Positions 47,432 through 55,256 of a DNA stretch of 64,000 bases are shown piece by piece. The stretch comes from Bacteroidota bacterium (GTDB lineage: Bacteria > Bacteroidota > Bacteroidia > Bacteroidales > GCA-2748055). A program made the translations under genes and the position numbers. The stretch is from NCBI GenBank assembly GCA_039714915.1, contig JBDLIM010000007.1, positions 13,437 through 77,436 on the forward strand, written 5' to 3'. Position 1 is the stretch's first letter. The number at the start of each line of letters is the position of its first letter. The notes beneath the pieces are model-generated. The model did no database searches. It was given only the letters and a program-made list of their open reading frames with translations, and had not been told where the DNA came from.

Positions 47432-49057
47432 TTATGAAGCAGGAACAAGGTCCTTGTTCTTGTTCTTTACAGGCTTGAAGATCCCGATGACACCTTCCAG
47501 ACCCACAGTCATTACTATGTTAATGAAAAAGGCCAGGAATGCGATAAGTAATAAGGCTCCACAGATCAAAGCCAGTATCATATAGAGGTCATACTCCCCG
47601 TTAAAATAAAGTGTTCTCCGGAGCATGCCTTTTAATCCGGCCATGCCCATAAAGGCTCCCATTCCAATGCCCCCTATCAGGTGACACCAGAAGTGCAGAT
47701 TGGCCAGTTTCTGGCTGTAGAGTTTTGCACCGTTGGTGAGTAAGGGTAACAATATGTAAATGGCCGCGTATAGGGTCATGGTGAGTCCCACCAGGATAGC
47801 CACATGCACATGGGGTCCCACTATCCACTGAGTGTTATGCAGAATGCGGTTCAGACCCACATCTGCCTGCATAATTCCGGCGGGTACAGCCAGGGCAAAT
47901 CCCAGGAGTCCTCCCAGCAGAAACTTCAGTTCGTTGGTCATTTTTAAAGGTCTGGCAGCCCAGAGAGTAGCCAGGGTAATAAAGAAAGCCAGGCCCTGGG
48001 TAATTAATTCAAATGCCGTAACCATTTCACCGGACAGGACTTTCAGGAATCCGGGTTGAGCCTGGTCAGAAAGAAGGTGATGCGACCATACTGTCCATGA
48101 TACGATGAGCTCAACCAGAAGGGCTGCACGGGCAATGTTTTGCATAAAGAGTTTCTTCCCGGTGATCATGGTGGCCAGCAGGTACCAGGTTCCGGCCACA
48201 AAAATAAGGACCAGACCATCAGCAATCAGATCAAGGCCCCACCAGAACCAGTTCTTATAAAGCAGGGCATCCACAGCTGTTTCCTTCAGATCATATCCGA
48301 GGATGGCTGCTACCATGTAGACAAGGATGAGCACACCCGTAAACAGGATGATTCCTGCATTCAGCGCCATATCAACTGTACCCCTGGCAATTGCTGCAAC
48401 AGGAAGGGATACCAGGTGTTCTTTGCGCTTATTTTTCTTTTTAAAGAGATTGCCGAAGCCTGCTGTCCCCAGGGCCGATCCCAGCAATTTGCCGGCAGGT
48501 TGTTTCTCCCACCCCTCTGGTGTATAGGAAATGGTCTTAAATATGTTAATAATAAAGAAAACCGAACCCAGCATGACAAGGGCAATTCCAAGTATGAAGA
48601 TGGCTCCTCCTACCGGATTGAATTGAGAGAAATCAGCCGGTAAGGGCCAGTAGAGCGTATAAAGTGGTGCATAGTGAGAAATAAATCCGGCCAGCCAGAA
48701 AATTAAGGTTCCGGCTGCGATCAGGATGAAGTTCCAGTGAGCCAGCTTCATGCTGTAGAGAGGTTTCTTCATAAGGAATGGGACCAGGAAGAGGAATGCT
48801 CCACAGACTATGGAGTAAGTCGAGCCAAAGATCCCCACCAGGGGGTGAGCTGTAAGTATGGCAAAGTACTGGACATCGGAGACCATGTCGATTTGCTCCA
48901 CTTGAATGACTCTCATAATCATTCCTTCCACCAGGACAAAGAGATAGAAGACCAGTCCGACGACTACAAAACGCAGGGTAAGTTTTTGCATGGCGGTGAG
49001 GGTTTCGGATTTGAATAATCCCTGTTCGCCTTTCATAAGGGTATTAATAAATGACAT
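47432..49057 (-). CDS. Heme-copper oxidoreductase superfamily subunit I, atypical active site (NO-reductase-like)
   Basis: 541 aa with about 12 TM helices. The conserved HCO histidines are H71 (LTAHPLVGIFG), H326/H327 (WSHHLL) and H416/H418 (LHNTQWIVGPHVHV). The helix-VI motif reads WFWWGLDLIADG, so Asp276 occupies the position of the metal-ligand His and Asp280 that of the cross-linked Tyr. Confidence 0.85.
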   Translation of the reverse strand: MSFINTLMKGEQGLFKSETLTAMQKLTLRFVVVGLVFYLFVLVEGMIMRVIQVEQIDMVSDVQYFAILTAHPLVGIFGSTYSIVCGAFLFLVPFLMKKPLYSMKLAHWNFILIAAGTLIFWLAGFISHYAPLYTLYWPLPADFSQFNPVGGAIFILGIALVMLGSVFFIINIFKTISYTPEGWEKQPAGKLLGSALGTAGFGNLFKKKNKRKEHLVSLPVAAIARGTVDMALNAGIILFTGVLILVYMVAAILGYDLKETAVDALLYKNWFWWGLDLIADGLVLIFVAGTWYLLATMITGKKLFMQNIARAALLVELIVSWTVWSHHLLSDQAQPGFLKVLSGEMVTAFELITQGLAFFITLATLWAARPLKMTNELKFLLGGLLGFALAVPAGIMQADVGLNRILHNTQWIVGPHVHVAILVGLTMTLYAAIYILLPLLTNGAKLYSQKLANLHFWCHLIGGIGMGAFMGMAGLKGMLRRTLYFNGEYDLYMILALICGALLLIAFLAFFINIVMTVGLEGVIGIFKPVKNKNKDLVPAS

Positions 49058-49084
49058 AATGAAGTTTTTTAGGTTAATATGGGA

Positions 49085-49648
49085 TTACTCAGAGATGCTG
49101 CCTTCGGGAACAACTTCCACGGCATTTTCTATGACCATGGCTACCCCCTTTGGACCTGAGTACTCGGTCGACCGAATGGTATAGACACCAGGTTTCAGAA
49201 ATTTCCAGATGATATCGTTCCGGTGACCCGGTACCACCTGCATCTGAAATAACATGGAGTTATCCTGTCTGAACAGTCCAAACCCATAGGTGAGGTCCAG
49301 AGAAGTGACATCGAATTCCACAATTTCACCGACCTCCACAATCATTTTCTCATCTGGAAGCAGGAATTCATGATTGGCCACATCGATGGCAAAACTCCTG
49401 TCGGGAGTGATCTCGTGACGTTTGAGATCCATTTCCGACCAGGGAATGGTATTATAGGTTATGATGTGCAGGGAAACTCCCAGCACGGTCAGGAATCCGA
49501 CAAAAGTGTAAAATAATGCCGGTTTCACTGTGCTTTTTCCTGGCTTGGTTATACGTAATGCGAACCATGCCATTACCAGTATAATAACCAAACTATAACA
49601 GGTATAAGCAATTGTTTGTCCTTTCAGGACGAGGGCTGAATCAACCAT
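49085..49648 (-). CDS. Oxidase subunit II-like cupredoxin protein lacking CuA ligands
   Basis: 187 aa with two N-terminal TM helices and a ~110-aa beta domain. The positions corresponding to the CuA His and the CxExCxxxH motif read DLTYGFG and RSTEYSGPKGVAM, with no Cys or His. There is no heme c motif. Confidence 0.6.
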   Translation of the reverse strand: MVDSALVLKGQTIAYTCYSLVIILVMAWFALRITKPGKSTVKPALFYTFVGFLTVLGVSLHIITYNTIPWSEMDLKRHEITPDRSFAIDVANHEFLLPDEKMIVEVGEIVEFDVTSLDLTYGFGLFRQDNSMLFQMQVVPGHRNDIIWKFLKPGVYTIRSTEYSGPKGVAMVIENAVEVVPEGSISE

Positions 49649-49718
49649 ACGACTTCCGTTTTTTAGCTTAGTTTAACATAAAATGCTACCCAATTATAGC
49701 ATATAAATATAAAAAAAA

Positions 49719-50129
49719 TCAATGTTTCATATCAGGATTTTTCATTTGAGCCAATGTAGTGTTTTTGAGCACATTAAGTAAGATTTCCCGGGTCTTGGCC
49801 CAGGGCTTATGCATGACACAGGAATGGTTAAACGGACATTGTTCTAGTCCCATTATGCAGGTTCCCAGTACATCCAGCCCTTCCACAGAGTCTATTATAT
49901 CAGCCAGGGTGATTAGGTCGGTCGACTTCTGCAATACAAATCCGCCATTTCGACCCTGTACACTGTCAATGAAACCGCTTTTTGACAGGCTTGTGAGCAA
50001 TTGTCGGAGGTAGGGCCAGGGAATTTTCAGGATCTCATTGAGCTGTTTGGCAGAGTATTTCTCACCTTTATGATCAGCCAGAAAGCTGAGGGTCATTAAG
50101 GCATATGAGGTTGTTTTGCTAAAATTCAT
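49719..50129 (-). CDS. Rrf2-family transcriptional regulator with three-Cys Fe-S ligand motif (NsrR/IscR-like)
   Basis: It has an N-terminal wHTH (MNFSKTTSYALMTLSFLADHKGEKYSAKQLNEILKIPWPYLRQLL) and the Cys cluster GTCIMGLEQCPFNHSCVMH (C-x6-C-x5-C). The start is placed at ATG 50129; the ORF-track start at 50147 is a TTG. Confidence 0.85.
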   Translation of the reverse strand: MNFSKTTSYALMTLSFLADHKGEKYSAKQLNEILKIPWPYLRQLLTSLSKSGFIDSVQGRNGGFVLQKSTDLITLADIIDSVEGLDVLGTCIMGLEQCPFNHSCVMHKPWAKTREILLNVLKNTTLAQMKNPDMKH

Positions 50130-50217
50130 ACCTGCGGGAGTGCACAATCAGATGGTGCCGATTAAATGCGATTCGAATATAGCAATTACTACGGTTATGA
50201 CGAAGTTATTACATGAT

Positions 50218-50244: not shown

Positions 50245-51258
50245 ATGTCAGTCTCTTTTCCTAAGGTCTCTGTTATTCTTCCATTCTATAATTCAGAAAG
50301 TACACTGAACAGGGCCGTTCAAAGCATATATGAACAAGAGTTCGAGGATTTTGAATGCATCATGGTTGACAACAATTCAACAGATAAAAGTGCAGAACTG
50401 GCTGAAGGCTGGACCAGGAAGGATAAGCGATTTCGCCTGCTCAAGGAAGCGCGGCAGGGAGTAATGTTTGCTTCCAACAGGGGTGCTGAGCTGAGTCATG
50501 GCGAATACCTGGCCAGGATGGATTCGGATGACCTGGCTTATCCCTGCCGCCTGCGTTTGCAGGTGGCGTTCCTGGACAAAAATCCGGAATACGGAGCAGT
50601 TGCAGGAAAGGTTAGGCATGTAGGAGAACCTGGCAGGACAGAAGGATTCAGACGCTTTGTGGAATGGAGTAATTCTCTTGTATCTTTTGAAGAAATAAAT
50701 TACCGCCGTTTTATTGAAGCACCTTTGGTAAATCCAAGTGCCATGTGGAGAAGAGATACCATGGCTCGCCATGGCATGTACCTCAGCGGGGATTTTCCTG
50801 AGGATTATGAAATGTGGCTGAGGTGGCTGGATGAGGGGGTGAAAATTGCTAAAGTGCCCGAGGTAATTCTGGACTGGCATGATTCAGACCTGCGCCTGAC
50901 CCGTACGGATCCCATCTATAGTGAAGGAGCCTTCTATGAGATCAAGAGCAAATACCTGGCTAAATGGTTGAGCCGGCACAATCCTTTTCACCCCAATGTG
51001 GCCATATGGGGTGCCAGCAGGATCTCCAGGCGTAGGGCCAGGATCCTGGAACAGCATGGAATCAGAATCAGCACCTACATTGATACCAAGAGCAGTCGCC
51101 AGATTAAAAAGGAGGTAGTTTATTATCAGGACCTTCCCCGGGCAGGAGAACACTTTGTCCTGAGCTACATCCGGCAGATGAACAATCGGGAAAAGATACA
51201 GGATTTCCTTGAGAAGCGGGGGTATCGCGAAGGAGAAAGCTACCTGCTGGTTTCCTGA
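50245..51258 (+). CDS. Glycosyltransferase family 2
   Basis: 337 aa with a GT-A N-terminus (VSVILPFYNSESTLNRAVQSIYEQEFEDFECIMVDNNSTD) and a DxD-like motif (RMDSDDLA). Confidence 0.85.
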   Translation: MSVSFPKVSVILPFYNSESTLNRAVQSIYEQEFEDFECIMVDNNSTDKSAELAEGWTRKDKRFRLLKEARQGVMFASNRGAELSHGEYLARMDSDDLAYPCRLRLQVAFLDKNPEYGAVAGKVRHVGEPGRTEGFRRFVEWSNSLVSFEEINYRRFIEAPLVNPSAMWRRDTMARHGMYLSGDFPEDYEMWLRWLDEGVKIAKVPEVILDWHDSDLRLTRTDPIYSEGAFYEIKSKYLAKWLSRHNPFHPNVAIWGASRISRRRARILEQHGIRISTYIDTKSSRQIKKEVVYYQDLPRAGEHFVLSYIRQMNNREKIQDFLEKRGYREGESYLLVS

Positions 51259-51331: not shown

Positions 51332-52258
51332 ATGCAACGTAGATCTTTTCTTAAAAGCAGTGCCGTGGCATCTGCAGCTCTTGTTTCGGGAGGAATGGCA
51401 CATGCCTCAGCTGCCACAGCGCTGAAAGCTTCACAAACCAGTCCCCAATTTAACTTAAAATATGCCCCGCATTTTGGAATGTTTAAGCATTCGGCCGGAG
51501 AGGACCTGCTTGATCAGCTTCAGTTTATGGCCGATGCCGGGTTTACGGCCATGGAAGACAATGGGATGAAGGGTCGTGATATATCCATGCAGGAAAAGAT
51601 TGCCGGCAAAATGGCCAAGCTGGGAATGGAGATGGGTGTATTTGTAGCCCATTCCATATACTGGAAAGAACCTAATTTAACCAGTGGCAATCCCGAGAAA
51701 CTGGATGAATTTTTAAAAGAGATTAAAGAATCGGTGGAAGTGGCAAAGAGGGTCAATGCTAAATGGATGACTGTGGTTCCCGGTCATGTGGATTTGCGTA
51801 AGGATATGGGATATCAGACCCGGAATGTAGTTGAAGCGCTCAGGCGGGCCAGCGACATCCTGGAACCCCATGGACTGACCATGGTACTGGAGCCCCTGAA
51901 TTTCAGGGATCATCCAGGTTTGTTCCTGAATAAGATCCCGCAGGGCTATCAGATCTGCCAGGCAGTGGCCAGCCCTGCTTGTAAAATTCTGGACGACCTT
52001 TATCACCAGCAAATTCATGAAGGGAACCTGATCCCTAATATGGATCTGGCCTGGGAAGAGATTGCTTACTTCCAGGTGGGAGATAATCCCGGAAGAAAAG
52101 AGCCCACCACCGGGGAGATCAATTACCTGAATGTATTTAAACACATACATGAAAAAGGATTTACAGGCATTGTGGGCATGGAACACGGGAATTCAATCCC
52201 CGGTAAAGAAGGGGAAGAAGCCCTTATCAAGGCCTATGCCAGTGTGGACAACTTCTAA
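51332..52258 (+). CDS. Tat-exported xylose-isomerase-like TIM-barrel protein (hydroxypyruvate isomerase / sugar phosphate isomerase-epimerase family)
   Basis: It has a twin-arginine signal (MQRRSFLKSSAVASAALVSGGMAHA) and a TIM-barrel family pattern (FNLKYAPHFGMF...AGFTAMEDN...VLEPLN...GIVGMEHG). The start is placed at the ATG carrying the Tat signal; the ORF track extends to 51209. Confidence 0.8.
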   Translation: MQRRSFLKSSAVASAALVSGGMAHASAATALKASQTSPQFNLKYAPHFGMFKHSAGEDLLDQLQFMADAGFTAMEDNGMKGRDISMQEKIAGKMAKLGMEMGVFVAHSIYWKEPNLTSGNPEKLDEFLKEIKESVEVAKRVNAKWMTVVPGHVDLRKDMGYQTRNVVEALRRASDILEPHGLTMVLEPLNFRDHPGLFLNKIPQGYQICQAVASPACKILDDLYHQQIHEGNLIPNMDLAWEEIAYFQVGDNPGRKEPTTGEINYLNVFKHIHEKGFTGIVGMEHGNSIPGKEGEEALIKAYASVDNF

Positions 52259-52275
52259 GAGGCGATATTACACAG

Positions 52276-52314
52276 AAAAACCGGGTGCTGCGTTGTGCAG
52301 TTACCCGGTTTTTT
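52276..52314. terminator. Bidirectional rho-independent terminator between the convergent TIM-barrel and Gfo/Idh/MocA genes
   Basis: AAAAACCGGGT-gCTGCgttgtGCAGtt-ACCCGGTTTTT forms an 11-bp outer stem plus a 4-bp inner stem. It has an A-tract 5' and a T-tract 3'. Confidence 0.7.
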
Positions 52315-52335
52315 ATACTATGAATTGCGAAATGG

Positions 52336-53685
52336 CTATTTAGGGGCTGACCCTGCAATGGGGATAACTTTTTCCATATCCACCTTTCCCATTTTCAATT
52401 CGCCTTCAGGTCCCAGTTTCCAACTGGCGCCCATCATCTCCTCCCAGCTAACTTTCTTTCCGGTATAAGCGGCCTCTCTTCCCATAATTGCAGTGAGCAC
52501 TGATTTTGCCGTTTCCTCTGCTTCCACAATCTGGTTCCCTGTACGGATGGCCGCAACCAGGTCTATGTGTTCCTGGACATAGGGATTGATTTCCAGGGGT
52601 TTGCCTTCTGCATCCACAGGAGAAGCATACTCATACAGTAGATTGTCTTCCGAATCCCAGATATGTTGATTCTGGTCCCCGGCAATCATATACCCTTTTG
52701 TACCCCTGATGTGCTCACTTACGCTGTTGGCACAATCGTTAATCTGGCGGCACATGCTGCCCATATGCACTTTCTTATCATATACAAAATCCACACTGAA
52801 ATTGTCATAGCAATCCCCGGTAGGCCTTCTGAGTCTTGAGCCCATACCCACAGCTTCAACAGGTACACCACCCACAAACCAGTTGCTTACATCAATGTTA
52901 TGCACATGTTGTTCCACAATATGGTCCCCTGAGAGCCATGTCCAGTTCACCCAGTCGCGCAGCATATGCTCCATTTCTGTCCAGCCGGCCATCAGGTCCT
53001 TGTGCCAGAGCTTGGACATATTCCAGTACACATTGGTGGCAACTATATCCCCAATCATACCTGCATCTACACGGGCCTTTAAATTCTGATAGGACCACTG
53101 GTGGCGCCTCTGGGTGCCCGTAACCACACATAGTCCGGCAGCTTCAGCCTGCTTGGAGGCAGCCATAACTGCACGTGCTCCCACCGGGTCAACAGCCACA
53201 GGTTTCTCCATAAATACATGCTTGCGGGCTTCCACACAGGCCTGAAAATGCTCTGGGCGGAAATAAGGCGGAGTGGCAAGGATCACAATATCCACATCAG
53301 ATTCAATCACCCGTTTATAGGCATCAAAACCGATGGAACACCTGGAATCCTCCAGGGTCACATTTTTCTCATCTTTCAGTTTCTGACGAAAACCGTCCAT
53401 CCTGTCCTGAAACATATCAGCAGCAGCAACAACACTCAGGCCGGATCCGGCATCCAGGAAGTTAATGGCAGCACCAGTGCCTCTTCCCCCGCAACCAATA
53501 ACACCTGCTTTAAGAGCCTGTCCTTCCGGAGCAGTGGACAGGAATGAAGGTTCTACCACATCAGCAGCGGATTCCCCGGGTGTACATGATTTGATTAACT
53601 GGCTTGCACCAATCGCGCCGATTGCACCTATGGCAGCAGTGTTCTCTAAAAATCTGCGCCGACTTGTTTTGTTTGATGGTTTCAT
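52336..53685 (-). CDS. Tat-exported Gfo/Idh/MocA-family NAD(P)-dependent oxidoreductase
   Basis: It has a twin-arginine signal (MKPSNKTSRRRFLENTAAIGAIGAIGA), a Rossmann motif (AGVIGCGGRGTGAA) and a Gfo/Idh/MocA core (HVFMEKP). The start is placed at the first ATG; the ORF-track start at 53724 is a TTG. Confidence 0.85.
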   Translation of the reverse strand: MKPSNKTSRRRFLENTAAIGAIGAIGASQLIKSCTPGESAADVVEPSFLSTAPEGQALKAGVIGCGGRGTGAAINFLDAGSGLSVVAAADMFQDRMDGFRQKLKDEKNVTLEDSRCSIGFDAYKRVIESDVDIVILATPPYFRPEHFQACVEARKHVFMEKPVAVDPVGARAVMAASKQAEAAGLCVVTGTQRRHQWSYQNLKARVDAGMIGDIVATNVYWNMSKLWHKDLMAGWTEMEHMLRDWVNWTWLSGDHIVEQHVHNIDVSNWFVGGVPVEAVGMGSRLRRPTGDCYDNFSVDFVYDKKVHMGSMCRQINDCANSVSEHIRGTKGYMIAGDQNQHIWDSEDNLLYEYASPVDAEGKPLEINPYVQEHIDLVAAIRTGNQIVEAEETAKSVLTAIMGREAAYTGKKVSWEEMMGASWKLGPEGELKMGKVDMEKVIPIAGSAPK

Positions 53686-53732
53686 ATTTGATAGTCTTTT
53701 ATAAAGTAAAGTTTGCTTAAGCAAGTTATGGT

Positions 53733-55256
53733 TTAATTGTTTACAGCTGGAGCATCGGGTTCACAAACTACCCTGAATCCCACGGACATGCAATCGGAAT
53801 ACCACCAGACGCTTTTTGGGATCTGGGGATCGGTCTTCATCCAGGGTTCTGTTTTTGTAATATTCCGGGATGCACAACGGACAAAATCAGCAGTTTCCAT
53901 AAAGGAGCCACCTCTGATCACATGTTCTTCTCCGGACGCTGGCCCGCTGGGATTTAAAACGGTTCCCTCAGGATATTGGGAATAGGCATCAGCTGCATAC
54001 CAGTCTGAACAGAACTCGGCCACATTCCCAAGCATATTGATCAGTCCAAAGGGATTCTCCCTGATCTGATCCGGACCGGCAGTTCGGGCCATGCTGTTTT
54101 CACTATAATAAATGTAACTGTTAATTCCGAAAGTATCCACACCAAATAGTTTATTTCTGATGCCTTTATTCACATATCGCTTCGGATCACCCTCGAAGAA
54201 ATAAGCTGAATTGGTACCACCCCTGGCAGCATATTCCCATTCAGCTTCTGTAGGCAGCCTGTAGGTTTTCCCTGTAATCTTTGTCAGCCACCGGCAATAT
54301 ACTTCAGCGGCATGATGGGTCATAGTAATGGCCGGCCTTCTGCCTTTGCCCCAGCCCTGATCAGGAGCGCCATAGGGAGGAGTGGGCCCCGAGATTGCAT
54401 CCACATCTCCCAGGTCCGTTTGGATAAAAGTATCTGTGGTTTTTATCTGAGATTCTGTCTGTTTAAAGAAGGCAAGGTACTCATTCCACGATACTTCAAT
54501 CTGAGCCATAAAGAAGGAATTAACCTCTACTTCCCTCACTGGTCCTTCATCGTCCTTTCGGAAGGGCTCATCCTCAGGGCTGCCCATCTGGAAGGTGCCT
54601 CCTGGGATGGCTATCATTTCAAAACTTACATTGGAGCCGGGAATATACTCTGTAAAGCTATTGAAGCCTTCCACTACTCCCGGTTCTGTATAGATTTCAG
54701 TGTCCTCCACTTCGGCAATTCCAAAATCGGTATTCTTTGCATGCAGCCGGTCCGGATCATAATGGCCAACTGTGATATGGCAATTGATGCAGTGCAGGTC
54801 ACCCTCCTGTTGTTCGTAATAAAGATGTGCCTCTCTTCCTTCAGCTGTCAGGCCCAAGGGGAAATTATTCTGGTGACAATGGATACAGGCAGCTTCGAAG
54901 CTGTGGTTTTTAGCGTATTCAATCCGGGATTTTAATTCCCAGTTGAAACTCTCCGGATCTTTAAATAACTTTCCCCAGAGATCGCGAAGACCGGTACGCG
55001 TCTTTTCTGCCAGGTATCCTTCGCCATGGGGAGGTAAATGACAGTCCACACAGTGTACATGGATTCCATGTTTATTATCATGGTGCGTGGAAAGCTTCCA
55101 GCTCTGGGTAGAGTGGGGATGGATATGGCACGAGGCACAGAAATCATCTGTGGAGGTGGCTGATATTGCCTTATTTCCAAAAAAGATGATCCCTGCAGTT
55201 AACACCACCCCGGTAAGGAAGAGCAGCCTGCCAGTATTTGTGCTTTTTAGTCTCAT
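53733..55256 (-). CDS. Fusion protein: NapC/NirT-type membrane-anchored tetraheme cytochrome c plus an FGE/SUMF1-like (sulfatase-modifying-factor fold) domain
   Basis: 507 aa with an N-terminal TM anchor and four CxxCH motifs in the first ~165 aa (CASCH, CVDCH, CIHCH, CINCH). The C-terminal ~300 aa carry FGE-family motifs (IPGGTFQMGSPEDE, VSWNEYLAF, YRLPTEAEWEYAARGG, GNVAEFCSDWY, IRGGSF). Confidence 0.8.
   Translation of the reverse strand: MRLKSTNTGRLLFLTGVVLTAGIIFFGNKAISATSTDDFCASCHIHPHSTQSWKLSTHHDNKHGIHVHCVDCHLPPHGEGYLAEKTRTGLRDLWGKLFKDPESFNWELKSRIEYAKNHSFEAACIHCHQNNFPLGLTAEGREAHLYYEQQEGDLHCINCHITVGHYDPDRLHAKNTDFGIAEVEDTEIYTEPGVVEGFNSFTEYIPGSNVSFEMIAIPGGTFQMGSPEDEPFRKDDEGPVREVEVNSFFMAQIEVSWNEYLAFFKQTESQIKTTDTFIQTDLGDVDAISGPTPPYGAPDQGWGKGRRPAITMTHHAAEVYCRWLTKITGKTYRLPTEAEWEYAARGGTNSAYFFEGDPKRYVNKGIRNKLFGVDTFGINSYIYYSENSMARTAGPDQIRENPFGLINMLGNVAEFCSDWYAADAYSQYPEGTVLNPSGPASGEEHVIRGGSFMETADFVRCASRNITKTEPWMKTDPQIPKSVWWYSDCMSVGFRVVCEPDAPAVNN

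Follow-up and report, generated by a model that had tools for sequence, protein, structure and literature searches.

A conserved pair of a Tat-signal Gfo/Idh/MocA dehydrogenase and a NapC/NirT-FGE fusion cytochrome as a candidate periplasmic dehydrogenase-to-quinone module

Periplasmic Tat-signal enzymes of the Gfo/Idh/MocA family (Gfo) are viewed in the published work as recycling their cofactor by a ping-pong reaction (PMC8121099; 10.1101/2024.03.25.586180). The electron acceptor of one of them, BT2158, is unknown (PMC8121099), and a possible role of cytochromes in re-oxidation has been suggested (10.1101/2024.03.25.586180). The published motif for flavin attachment by ApbE is D-x-x-[S/T]-G-A-[S/T] (PMC12052999). 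PvdO is a Cys-less protein of the FGE fold that is needed for an oxidation step in pyoverdine maturation. No description of a link between an exported sugar dehydrogenase and quinone was found in the literature searched.

The window analysed here is a 64,000-nucleotide stretch of DNA from a Bacteroidota bacterium. A preliminary description, made from sequence alone, had noted a Tat-signal Gfo enzyme, a Tat-signal TIM barrel and a NapC-type cytochrome; this observation held, with all three genes confirmed at their coordinates and the domain calls well over chance. The cytochrome gene (53733..55256, minus strand) encodes a fusion protein of 507 amino acids, which joins an N-terminal membrane helix and a tetrahaem cytochrome c domain of the NapC/NirT type to a Cys-less FGE-fold domain. 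A single N-terminal hydrophobic helix was identified, with its hydropathy peak at residues 9-27. The membrane anchor (approximately residues 9-30) and the tetrahaem domain (residues 11-169) lie at 54750..55232 on the minus strand. Residues 11-169 match PF03264 (NapC/NirT) above the cut-off (E 4.5e-28), and residues 213-466 match PF03781 (FGE-sulfatase; E 2.9e-44). The four CxxCH haem motifs, at residues 40, 69, 124 and 156 (CASCH, CVDCH, CIHCH and CINCH), are all kept in 7/7 fusion orthologs, in which K85 and D92 of the same domain are also invariant.

The periplasmic FGE-fold domain (approximately residues 213-499; 53760..54620, minus strand) belongs to a Gfo-associated subfamily. In structure it comes closest to PvdO (TM 0.74 on the target), followed by the FGEs (0.62-0.69). 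The FGE catalytic Cys pair is missing from this domain; the stretch reads GGSFMETADF..VRCA and the corresponding region is unconserved. A C-terminal insert, D-P-Q-x-P-K-S-x-W-W (residues 476-485), is present in 35 of 36 members of the Gfo-associated subfamily and missing from 30 of 31 generic FGE-sulfatase proteins.

A candidate ApbE flavinylation site, D286-A-I-S-G-P-T292 (54381..54401, minus strand; translation checked), is present in this domain, with T292 as the proposed bearer of the FMN. The loop D-A-[IV]-[ST]-x-[PA]-[TS], continuing -P-P-Y, is specific to the Gfo-associated subfamily and nearly invariant: across 40 sequences, the D is found in 37, S/T at position -3 in 37, P/A at -1 in 40 and T/S at 0 in 40. 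It is closely similar to the DAVTGATPL of the RnfD homolog of the same genome, and the exact canonical DxxSGAT is present in two orthologs (L042 and L044). The loop has a pLDDT below 50 in the predicted structure. At this locus it has Pro where the canonical ApbE site has Ala, and Arg-Pro replaces Gly-Ala in most stand-alone subfamily members. Canonical FGEs show D-A-V...P-W-W at the aligned position, so that part of the resemblance to a flavinylation loop comes with the fold. None of the proteins of the ApbE-linked loci contains a canonical [ST]GA[ST] motif. The T292 loop as a covalent FMN site is an inference, without biochemical evidence, and flavin attachment is untested.

The Gfo gene (52336..53685, minus strand) encodes a Tat-signal NAD(P)-dependent oxidoreductase of 449 amino acids from an ATG. 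An alternative TTG start lies at 53724; the ATG at 53685 is probably the true start, and the protein then opens MKPSNKTSRRRFLE. The intergenic gap to the fusion gene is 47 nt from the ATG, and 8 nt only with the TTG start. The protein matches PF01408, PF22725 and PF02894, and its Tat signal scores 20.2 bits with TIGR01409 (cut-off 16.7). Across 20 orthologs the RR pair does not vary, nor does the F after it; GCGxRGxGA, EKP and D..H..D are also invariant, and the NAD-binding and catalytic motifs are intact. A Cys after the h-region (LIKSC) suggests that the enzyme is probably a lipoprotein, which is inferred. The AF2 model (mean pLDDT 86.6) gave structural matches to the Gfo fold, and the BT_2158 family model scored only 20 bits against a cut-off of 750. 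The closest structural relatives include YjhC/NanOx (RgNanOx), aldose-aldose oxidoreductase and GFOR; these enzymes regenerate their tightly bound NAD(P) with no acceptor from outside, which is a point against the external acceptor proposed here. There are seven Gfo-like matches in this genome. The in-genome paralogs are 23-33% identical, and the nearest of them is paired with a 3-keto-disaccharide hydrolase and a GH92 gene.

The third gene (51332..52258, plus strand) encodes a Tat-signal xylose-isomerase-like TIM-barrel protein of 308 amino acids, of the Hyi/OtnI-like branch, that matches PF01261 (E 8.8e-31) and scores 131 bits with TIGR03234, under the cut-off of 353. The preliminary description had assigned Tat signals to both enzymes. 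That of the Gfo is above the cut-off, while the TIM barrel, which starts MQRRSFLK, is at or under it (16.6 against 16.7, and 21 against 22.7), though its RR motif is retained in every ortholog inspected. A bidirectional intrinsic terminator hairpin (52275..52314; A-run, 13-pair stem and U-run) is common to the convergent Gfo and TIM genes; it folds at -25.2 kcal/mol (z = -4.87), and 0/200 shuffles fold equally well. The TIM and Gfo genes converge and so do not form one operon here. A TIM ortholog (47-88% identity) lies within the cluster in 10/36 loci, where it is often co-directional. The TIM barrel, separately transcribed here and missing from most loci, is a frequent accessory and no fixed member.

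The adjacency of the fusion and Gfo genes, their co-inheritance and their linkage to ApbE are shown by comparison across genomes. Counting related loci with enough flank, the two genes adjoin in 10/10 loci, drawn from the genus and from four further families, and their order is flipped in two (L033 and L038). Full-length fusion loci (L040-L048) place them together also in Prolixibacteraceae, Draconibacterium, other Bacteroidales and one Acidobacteriota MAG. In 24 sampled sister families, both were present in the same three (f11, f19 and f20) and neither was detected in the other 21. The same FGE subfamily adjoins an orthologous Tat-Gfo (38-42% identity) in Flavobacteriaceae, Pedobacter, Chitinophagaceae, Saprospiraceae and Cytophagales and, outside Bacteroidota, in Planctomycetota, Verrucomicrobiota, Gemmatimonadota and Bryobacteraceae. 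The adjoining Gfo is always the same ortholog (38-87% identical), and it adjoins generic FGE-sulfatase genes in 0/42 control loci. A lack of conserved co-occurrence in related genomes had been named beforehand as an outcome that would refute the module; the module survived this check.

The FGE domain occurs fused to a NapC tetrahaem domain, fused to a PSCyt1 mono- or dihaem cytochrome c, or stand-alone. The constant partner of the dehydrogenase is thus the FGE-fold domain and not the cytochrome, which varies (NapC, PSCyt1 or none). The two independent cytochrome fusions link the FGE domain with electron transfer. In aerobic members, by comparison, a cytochrome is neither fused nor adjacent, which weighs against an external acceptor, and many subfamily members are without any cytochrome. 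No Gfo-FGE fusion protein was found, though the search was weak. An ApbE flavin transferase gene lies within the cluster in 9/36 loci, from at least five phyla. ApbE is present in 31/36 genomes of the genus; none was detected in this assembly (97.5% complete), which weighs against flavinylation. Neither a sulfatase nor a siderophore gene travels with the FGE-Gfo pair in the loci compared. The neighbours in various loci include a 3-keto-disaccharide hydrolase, ThuA, GH2 and GH88; together with the pairing of the nearest paralog, they support the earlier suggestion of a sugar pathway of the 3-keto-glycoside type. The genome itself encodes 14 PF06439 genes, TatC and cytochrome bd.

We favour, as slightly more likely than not, a route in which electrons would pass from substrate to bound NAD(P)H, a tethered FMN, the four haems and menaquinone; the substrate, flavin and direction are inferred, and nothing biochemical has been shown. 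The Gfo enzyme would be exported folded through Tat with NAD(P) bound, probably lipid-anchored in Bacteroidales, and would act on a secondary alcohol group of a sugar or glycoside, with a 3-keto sugar as the likeliest oxidation product. As the periplasm allows no exchange of the nucleotide, its hydride would be handed to an FMN that ApbE had covalently tethered to Thr292, in the flexible loop of the neighbour's FGE-fold domain. The flavin would divide the electron pair into single electrons for the haems of the fused NapC/NirT domain and the menaquinone pool, and the electrons could then reach terminal oxidases or reductases, such as the cytochrome bd encoded here. The exported Hyi-like TIM barrel, whose role is likewise inferred, may enolise the keto product for isomerisation or beta-elimination. 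By their established midpoint potentials, NAD(P)H should donate electrons to menaquinone; the usual reaction of NapC/NirT proteins is quinol oxidation and not quinone reduction, which counts against the proposed direction. The preliminary description had proposed respiratory coupling of a periplasmic NAD(P) dehydrogenase, and the linkage supports this; substrate, export, cofactor retention and electron direction remain inference. That scheme was without a relay from hydride to single electrons, which ApbE and the flavinylation-like loop could supply. If the module works in this way, an exported NAD-type sugar dehydrogenase feeds electrons from extracytoplasmic sugar oxidation into respiration.

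The main rival, which we consider unlikely, is a redox-neutral Gfo whose bound NAD(P) is regenerated when the enzyme reduces a second sugar or a keto intermediate, as in GFOR, aldose-aldose oxidoreductase, NanOx and the proposed BT2158/AL3 cycle. In that case the cytochrome-FGE protein would not be the main acceptor; it would serve as a docking scaffold, or as a safety valve resetting stuck reduced enzyme. The best fold matches (YjhC, RgNanOx, aldose-aldose oxidoreductase and GFOR), the published ping-pong view and the absence of any cytochrome with many FGE subfamily members are consistent with this. Against it, the Gfo and its FGE-fold partner are strictly adjacent and inherited together across phyla, that partner has been fused to c-type cytochromes twice independently, and ApbE lies in the cluster; all of this is difficult to account for unless electrons leave the Gfo. 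A safety-valve role would be only a weaker form of the favoured explanation.

Reverse flow appears very unlikely. Here menaquinol would feed the NapC haems, as with NrfH, NapC and CymA, and then the FGE-fold domain and a periplasmic substrate, either on that domain itself or a keto compound handled via the Gfo. NapC/NirT members are typically quinol dehydrogenases serving periplasmic reductases; the fusion's membership is shown by its profile match, and a quinol site would be consistent with the invariant K85 and D92. However, reduction of NAD(P)+ (approximately -320 mV) from menaquinol (approximately -74 mV) would be energetically very unfavourable, the Gfo retains the active site of a normal dehydrogenase, and aerobic lineages fuse the same domain to a PSCyt1-type cytochrome c or to nothing. 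Cytochrome cM552 is, moreover, a quinone-reducing relative of NapC/NirT.

Also very unlikely is a role of the FGE-fold domain as an oxidase that modifies a protein or metabolite (PvdO- or FGE-like maturation), with the haems as electron sink and the Gfo as substrate or helper rather than electron source. PvdO is the best structural match, and FGE-family enzymes are oxidases. However, the FGE Cys pair is missing and its stretch unconserved, no sulfatase or siderophore gene accompanies the pair, and the recurrent companions are ApbE and the sugar-type TIM barrel. Chance neighbourhood in a gene-dense genome, in which Gfo/Idh/MocA and TIM-barrel genes are numerous (seven Gfo-like matches here), is all but ruled out by the comparative data, as the same Gfo ortholog always adjoins (38-87% identity, against 23-33% for in-genome paralogs), the adjacency outlasts a gene-order swap, 0/42 control loci have this Gfo adjacent, and both genes are present or missing together in 24/24 sister families.

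The proposed dehydrogenase-to-quinone module can be set against five groups of described systems. Like the NapC/NirT cytochromes (NrfH, NapC, CymA, the TorC N-domain and cytochrome cM552), the fusion has one N-terminal membrane helix, four CxxCH haems, a PF03264 match above the cut-off, a conserved Lys/Asp in the first helix region and a presumed electron exchange between the quinone pool and a periplasmic partner. It differs in carrying an FGE-fold domain, in having as partner an NAD-type dehydrogenase and not a haem, Mo or Cu reductase, and in the proposed flow into the quinone pool; it scores far under the equivalog cut-offs of NrfH, NapC and TorC. With PvdO and the FGEs (PF03781) the domain shares its fold; like PvdO it is periplasmic and without the FGE Cys pair, and it lacks the catalytic cysteines of the FGEs. 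Unlike either, it has its own loop (D-A-[IV]-[ST]-x-[PA]-[TS]-P-P-Y) and insert (D-P-Q-x-P-K-S-x-W-W), and is linked to Gfo, ApbE and cytochromes and not to sulfatase or pyoverdine genes.

Like the ApbE-flavinylated carriers (the FMN_bind domains of NqrC/RnfG, NqrB/RnfD, NosR, PplA and PceC), it presents a Thr/Ser in a D-x-x-[S/T]-G-A-[S/T]-like loop, with ApbE in the cluster of relatives and a periplasmic electron-transfer context. The FGE-like carrier fold is, in contrast, absent from the folds listed in PMC8238504 and 10.1101/2024.03.13.584918, and the motif, at which flavin attachment is untested, is off-canonical at -1 and often at -2. The Gfo shares its Tat signal, fold, intact NAD site and sugar context with periplasmic Tat-Gfo enzymes with non-exchangeable NAD(P) (Zymomonas GFOR, Caulobacter aldose-aldose oxidoreductase and the Bacteroides BT2158/AL3 glycoside 3-dehydrogenase), and in BT2156-2159 the Gfo enzyme, too, is accompanied by TIM-barrel and DUF1080 enzymes. 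A second sugar is presumed to recycle the cofactor of those Tat-Gfo enzymes, whereas the Gfo here is locked to a cytochrome/FGE partner. The cytochrome c-dependent glycoside 3-dehydrogenases (LacABC/FAD-type glucoside 3-dehydrogenase; ThuAB) convert a periplasmic glycoside to a 3-keto-glycoside with electrons passing to cytochromes and the respiratory chain, as is proposed here. The catalytic subunit of LacABC is of the FAD GMC type with its own cytochrome c subunit, whereas the one here is NAD-type and is linked through an FGE-fold domain and a NapC-type quinone-pool cytochrome, an arrangement that would also serve anaerobes without a soluble cytochrome c/oxidase branch.

The three genes that the preliminary description, made from the sequence alone, had placed within 51332-55256 were all correctly identified. 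The first (53733-55256, minus strand) encodes a 507-aa protein with one N-terminal hydrophobic helix, a NapC/NirT cytochrome domain (PF03264) and a domain of the FGE-sulfatase fold (PF03781), termed here the fusion or cyt-FGE. A Gfo/Idh/MocA oxidoreductase gene (Gfo; 52336-53685, minus strand) follows after a gap of 47 nt, or of 8 nt with the upstream TTG start of Gfo, and its product has the N-terminus MKPSNKTSRRRFLE and then an h-region ending in Cys. The third gene (51332-52258, plus strand) encodes a xylose-isomerase-like TIM barrel protein with the N-terminus MQRRSFLK. As a correction to the earlier account, this gene is convergent with Gfo and so is not co-transcribed here with the other two; a strong, bidirectional hairpin terminator (52275-52314; -25.2 kcal/mol, z = -4.9) is common to the convergent genes.

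The twin-arginine signals previously proposed for Gfo and the TIM barrel protein were upheld as motifs with an h-region. The Gfo motif is SRRRFLE, with TIGR01409 above its cut-off, and that of the TIM barrel protein is QRRSFLK, with a Tat score at the cut-off. The RR pair is kept in the orthologs of both proteins, and TatC is encoded in the genome. Tat export of both is likely, the export itself being inferred from the signals. In the Gfo orthologs from Bacteroidales, a Cys stands right behind the h-region of the signal and suggests a Tat lipoprotein.

A lack of conserved co-occurrence would have refuted the original interpretation, which survived this check for the fusion and Gfo. Ten loci were sampled within the order, from the same genus and four other families, with fusions 49-82% identical and one locus (L038) truncated by a contig end. 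The fusion and a Gfo ortholog adjoin in all ten; the gene order is swapped in L033 and L038, with adjacency still kept. The TIM ortholog lies directly beside the pair in six of the ten and about 4 kb off in a seventh (L033). It is directly downstream of Gfo and co-directional in L030, and also in L032 at lower similarity. One genome from each of 24 sister families was searched with the full-length fusion and for a Gfo ortholog at E <= 1e-90. Both were present in the same three families (f11, f19 and f20), and neither was found in the single genomes of the other 21. Few genomes of the genus are without the fusion or Gfo, and in those the genome is incomplete or the gene sits at the edge of a contig. 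When one genome per species was scanned, full-length fusions were recovered in Prolixibacteraceae, Draconibacterium, other Bacteroidales, one KSB1 MAG and one Acidobacteriota MAG, with the Gfo ortholog adjoining wherever the contig goes on. The adjacency and co-inheritance of the pair are thus shown. In one Bacteroidales MAG (L046:11836-14028), cyt-FGE, Gfo and TIM genes are followed in the same direction by a gene for a 730-aa fused ResB/CcsA-type cytochrome c assembly protein.

The surrounding genes were also compared. The TIM gene is preceded, at a distance of 73 nt, by a GT2 glycosyltransferase gene (50245-51258, plus strand), a layout kept across the genus. In Prolixibacteraceae and Draconibacterium loci (L042:10808-13740; L044:10853-13709), a different GT2 and a PMT/GT39-like TPR membrane glycosyltransferase come after the cyt-FGE/Gfo pair; orthology of this GT2 with that of the window was rejected (28% identity over 92 aa). 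The fosmid with a published AL cluster is described as also bearing GT2 and GT39 genes (10.1101/2024.03.25.586180), and genes of these types could be a glycosylation set accompanying exported Gfo enzymes. The neighbouring cluster at 47432-50147 (minus strand) holds a COX1-like (gNOR-type) gene, a 187-aa partner and an Rrf2 regulator. A functional tie to this cluster was rejected, as the COX1-like gene is beside the module in no other related locus examined, the genus included; Rrf2 and GT2 genes, unlike the COX1-like gene, do adjoin the module in related loci. The COX1-like gene is probably a genome-specific insertion unrelated to the module.

The same species-level scan matched the C-terminal domain of the fusion alone, at 34-42% identity and through its C-terminal end. 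It is carried by Flavobacteriaceae (Eudoraea adriatica DSM 19308), Pedobacter, Chitinophagaceae, Saprospiraceae and Cytophagales, and also by Planctomycetota, Verrucomicrobiota, Gemmatimonadota and Bryobacteraceae, as a secreted protein of 310-400 aa. The next gene in most of these loci encodes a Tat-signal Gfo 38-42% identical to that of the window. Altogether, a Gfo ortholog adjoins in at least 25 of the 36 loci of this subfamily of Cys-less, FGE-fold domains, and contig ends truncate several of the others. The 42 lower-scoring loci with generic FGE-sulfatase domains (L078-L119) served as an internal control, and none adjoins a Gfo ortholog. Since the Gfo paralogs within the window's genome are only 23-33% identical to the window Gfo, the adjoining gene is a specific ortholog rather than any Gfo.

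The cytochrome is the variable part. In five Verrucomicrobiota and Acidobacteriota loci, NapC is replaced by a PSCyt1-type cytochrome c domain at the N-terminus, bearing one or two haems, and the forms from aerobic Bacteroidota have no cytochrome fused or adjacent. The fusions themselves are shown; from two independent fusions to different c-type cytochromes, we argue that the FGE-fold domain acts in electron transfer. The obligatory partner of Gfo is the FGE-fold domain, with a cytochrome module that varies (NapC, PSCyt1 or none). No Rosetta-stone fusion of Gfo to the FGE fold or to a cytochrome was found among longer proteins at E <= 1e-40, which is weak evidence. A Pirellulaceae MAG (L063:7812-10417) has two tandem subfamily copies of 418 and 435 aa, with no adjoining Gfo ortholog.

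The domain content of the fusion is shown by its profile matches. Its C-terminal domain matched PF03781 at 152 bits (E 2.9e-44), and a Foldseek comparison with FGE structures gave E ~1e-17. The best structural match of the model was PvdO (TM 0.74 on target), with FGEs ranking next. Alignment to the Thermomonospora curvata and human enzymes showed that the catalytic, Cu-binding Cys pair (human C336/C341) is missing: in the fusion segment GGSFMETADF..VRCA, Glu replaces the first Cys, and a gap stands opposite the second. This stretch varies between fusion orthologs. With no catalytic Cys pair and no linked sulfatase, a true FGE acting in sulfatase maturation was rejected. Two features are specific to the subfamily, namely a loop, D-A-[IV]-[ST]-x-[PA]-[TS]-P-P-[YWF] (residues 286-295 of the window fusion), and a C-terminal insert, D-P-Q-x-P-K-S-x-W-[WY] (residues 476-485). 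Both are nearly invariant in the 36 subfamily members; of 31 generic FGE-sulfatase proteins, 24-30 have gaps there. The family is abundant: of 8000 candidate database proteins scored, over 5000 reached E <= 1e-30. A profile search of 1.8 billion proteins returned mostly giant multi-repeat FGE-domain proteins and added little. One metagenomic protein (P0151, 495 aa) joins a truncated subfamily domain to an FAD-linked oxidase C-terminal domain (PF02913); it could be genuine, or have arisen from an assembly error or a frameshift.

The N-terminal part of the fusion matched the curated NapC/NirT profile PF03264 over residues 11-169 with 98.6 bits against a cut-off of 24.1 (E 4.5e-28). A single N-terminal membrane helix is indicated by the hydropathy peak at residues 9-27, and the CxxCH motifs at residues 40, 69, 124 and 156 are invariant among seven orthologs. 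The fusion scored below the NCBIfam equivalog cut-offs, with 64 bits vs 134 for NrfH, 46 vs 349 for NapC and 67 vs 478 for TorC. Residues K85 and D92 are invariant in the orthologs aligned; their spacing is like that of the quinol-site Lys/Asp of NrfH, to which they may correspond, and activity with the quinone pool is inferred. The AF2 model had a mean pLDDT of 74.7, with most of the FGE domain above 90 and a poorly modelled haem domain, as expected because the cofactors are absent.

When the neighbouring genes of the 36 loci were clustered, four families recurred: FGE-like, Gfo, the TIM barrel (in 10 loci) and ApbE (in 9). The clustered ApbE proteins match PF02424 at E 1e-65 to 1e-75 and come from Pedobacter, Saprospiraceae, Gemmatimonadota, Bryobacteraceae, Verrucomicrobiota, Sediminibacterium, Cytophagales and one Flavobacteriaceae MAG, in the orders FGE-Gfo-ApbE, FGE-Gfo-ApbE-TIM, Gfo-FGE-ApbE and ApbE-FGE-Gfo. 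This linkage is shown; covalent FMN on the FGE-fold domain is inferred. ApbE puts FMN on the last Ser/Thr of D-x-x-[S/T]-G-A-[S/T] in extracytosolic electron-transfer proteins (PMC12052999). The loop of the window fusion reads D-A-I-S-G-P-T, with Pro where the canonical motif has Ala; in two orthologs the match to the canonical motif is exact (L042, DGISGAT; L044, DGITGAT). Of 40 sequences compared, 37 have the Asp, 37 have S/T at position -3, and all 40 have P/A at position -1 and T/S at position 0; most members have Pro, not Ala, at position -1, and in most stand-alone members Arg occupies position -2 ([ST]-R-P-[TS]). The genome's own RnfD/NqrB homolog (contig C5:74061-75017, locus L120) has the canonical flavinylation site D-A-V-T-G-A-T-P-L, which is very close to the D-A-I-S-G-P-T-P-P of the fusion. 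Residues 270-295, including the loop, were modelled at pLDDT < 50, in keeping with an exposed, flexible segment.

Several observations weaken the flavinylation idea. Canonical FGEs carry D-A-V-V-P-E-A-P-W-W at the position aligned to the loop, so that D-A-[IV] and P-[YW] are in part a legacy of the fold. The FGE-like, Gfo and TIM proteins of the ApbE-linked loci contain no canonical [ST]GA[ST], and the idea therefore rests on a variant motif. A Pfam search and tblastn with seven ApbE proteins found no ApbE gene in the window's assembly, which is 97.5% complete; as 31 of 36 genomes of the genus have ApbE, an assembly gap is the likelier reason. In a Flavobacteriaceae MAG locus (L051:7827-10508), a subfamily member is followed by a YceI-like protein and then ApbE, with no Gfo, and the FGE-fold/ApbE pair may thus serve other partners.

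For Gfo, three Pfam family hits were obtained. The motifs GCGGRGTGA, EKP and GDHIVEQHVHNID are conserved in 20 orthologs, all of which retain the RR motif, the GCGxRGxGA nucleotide loop, EKP and the GDH..Q..HN.D catalytic region; these motifs are shown. The AF2 model (mean pLDDT 86.6) matched YjhC/NanOx, inositol dehydrogenases, aldose-aldose oxidoreductase, glucuronide 3-dehydrogenase, levoglucosan dehydrogenase and GFOR. Such predicted matches to sugar and cyclitol dehydrogenase folds fix the class of Gfo, not its substrate. With 20.4 bits against a cut-off of 750 for the BT_2158 family (NF058561), Gfo belongs to a different clade, with chemistry that is perhaps similar. A GH109-type NAD-dependent glycosidase was not supported, there being no GH109 structure among the sequence or fold matches. 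The TIM barrel protein is a PF01261 superfamily member nearest to the hydroxypyruvate/2-oxo-tetronate isomerase models and is not a Hyi/OtnI equivalog (TIGR03234, 131 bits vs 353; NF043033, 126 vs 325).

Gene context points to glycoside 3-oxidation as a possible reaction of Gfo, the substrate being inferred from that context. In related genomes, the nearest Gfo paralog (51% identity, also with a Tat signal and Cys) has GH92 before it and a 3-keto-disaccharide hydrolase (PF06439) after it. In L033 the module directly adjoins a PF06439 gene, genes of this family number 14 in the window's genome, and module neighbours elsewhere include GH2, GH88 and a SASA esterase. The paralog itself (L121:7578-9639, on G018:C3; similar in G001, G007, G011, G013, G014, G023 and G031) has no nearby FGE-fold partner; it may use the single cyt-FGE in trans or work redox-neutrally. 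In an uncultured Bacteroidia MAG (L041:10954-13494), the genes after the module encode another Gfo, a distant one at 23% identity, and a member of the ThuA family. The pairing of Gfo with ThuA is known from trehalose 3-oxidation.

The function of the module is inferred. On the likeliest reading, Gfo would be exported with bound NAD(P) and would oxidise a sugar hydroxyl. The hydride would pass to an FMN tethered at Thr292 of the FGE-fold domain, replacing the second sugar of a GFOR-type ping-pong reaction; single electrons would move through the four haems to menaquinone, and then to terminal oxidases or reductases. Cytochrome bd is encoded in the window's genome. The TIM barrel protein may act on the keto product by enolisation, isomerisation or beta-elimination. 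The respiratory-module reading of the preliminary description is thereby supported and refined, with its function still inferred; a bound nicotinamide needs a flavin-type converter to give single electrons to haem, and the flavin relay fills this gap in the earlier scheme. A bolder reading is that the FGE fold is an unrecognised carrier of ApbE-attached FMN which re-oxidises the non-exchangeable NAD(P)H of Tat-exported Gfo and, fused to a NapC-type cytochrome, would make periplasmic glycoside 3-oxidation energy-conserving and menaquinone-linked in anaerobic Bacteroidales and other phyla. We hold this reading tentatively, as slightly more apt to fail than to stand, with the covalent FMN inferred.

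Of the alternatives, a redox-neutral Gfo with the FGE-fold partner as a scaffold or safety valve survives best. It would accord with the forms that lack a cytochrome and leaves the cytochrome fusions to be accounted for; we consider it unlikely. A quinol-driven reductase would run the same chain backwards and is very unlikely; transfer from NAD(P)H to menaquinone is downhill, and the reverse is uphill by ~250 mV. An FGE-fold modifying oxidase with the haems as its electron sink has the fold in its favour and the missing Cys pair against it, and is likewise given very little weight. Chance neighbours are all but excluded by the recurrence of the pair across phyla.

Exported NAD(P)-containing Gfo/Idh/MocA proteins are very common in Bacteroidota, Planctomycetota and Verrucomicrobiota, and the oxidation-elimination route of breaking down glycans, a recent discovery, rests on them. 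The literature leaves openly unresolved (PMC8121099; 10.1101/2024.03.25.586180) how these proteins are re-oxidised in a compartment that lacks free nucleotides. If the proposed relay is true, it would answer how these enzymes shed electrons and would represent a new type of respiratory dehydrogenase, running from hydride to tethered flavin, haems and menaquinone. It would also give the FGE fold a new use and ApbE a new class of substrate. Anaerobic Bacteroidales of sediment and gut type would then be able to draw energy from the opening, extracytoplasmic step in glycoside breakdown. Cultivable carriers exist, including Eudoraea adriatica DSM 19308 and Pedobacter sp. Hv1, and the module is therefore directly testable.

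Literature searches on NapC/NirT with formylglycine, Gfo with NapC, and formylglycine with Gfo or ApbE returned nothing relevant, and surveys of ApbE substrates (PMC8238504; 10.1101/2024.03.13.584918) mention no FGE, sulfatase or Gfo in their main text. The literature searched holds no description of the module. Liu et al. (PMC8121099) proposed that the Tat-exported Gfo BT2158 oxidises disaccharides by means of a tightly bound cofactor, with a second substrate that was left unidentified, and argued that the short electron transport chain of Bacteroides excludes cytochrome c-dependent dehydrogenases. Nasseri et al. (10.1101/2024.03.25.586180) showed that the NAD is not exchanged. Compared with known systems, the module would be of a known kind, a periplasmic dehydrogenase wired to the respiratory chain, in which the flavin-carrier fold may be new.
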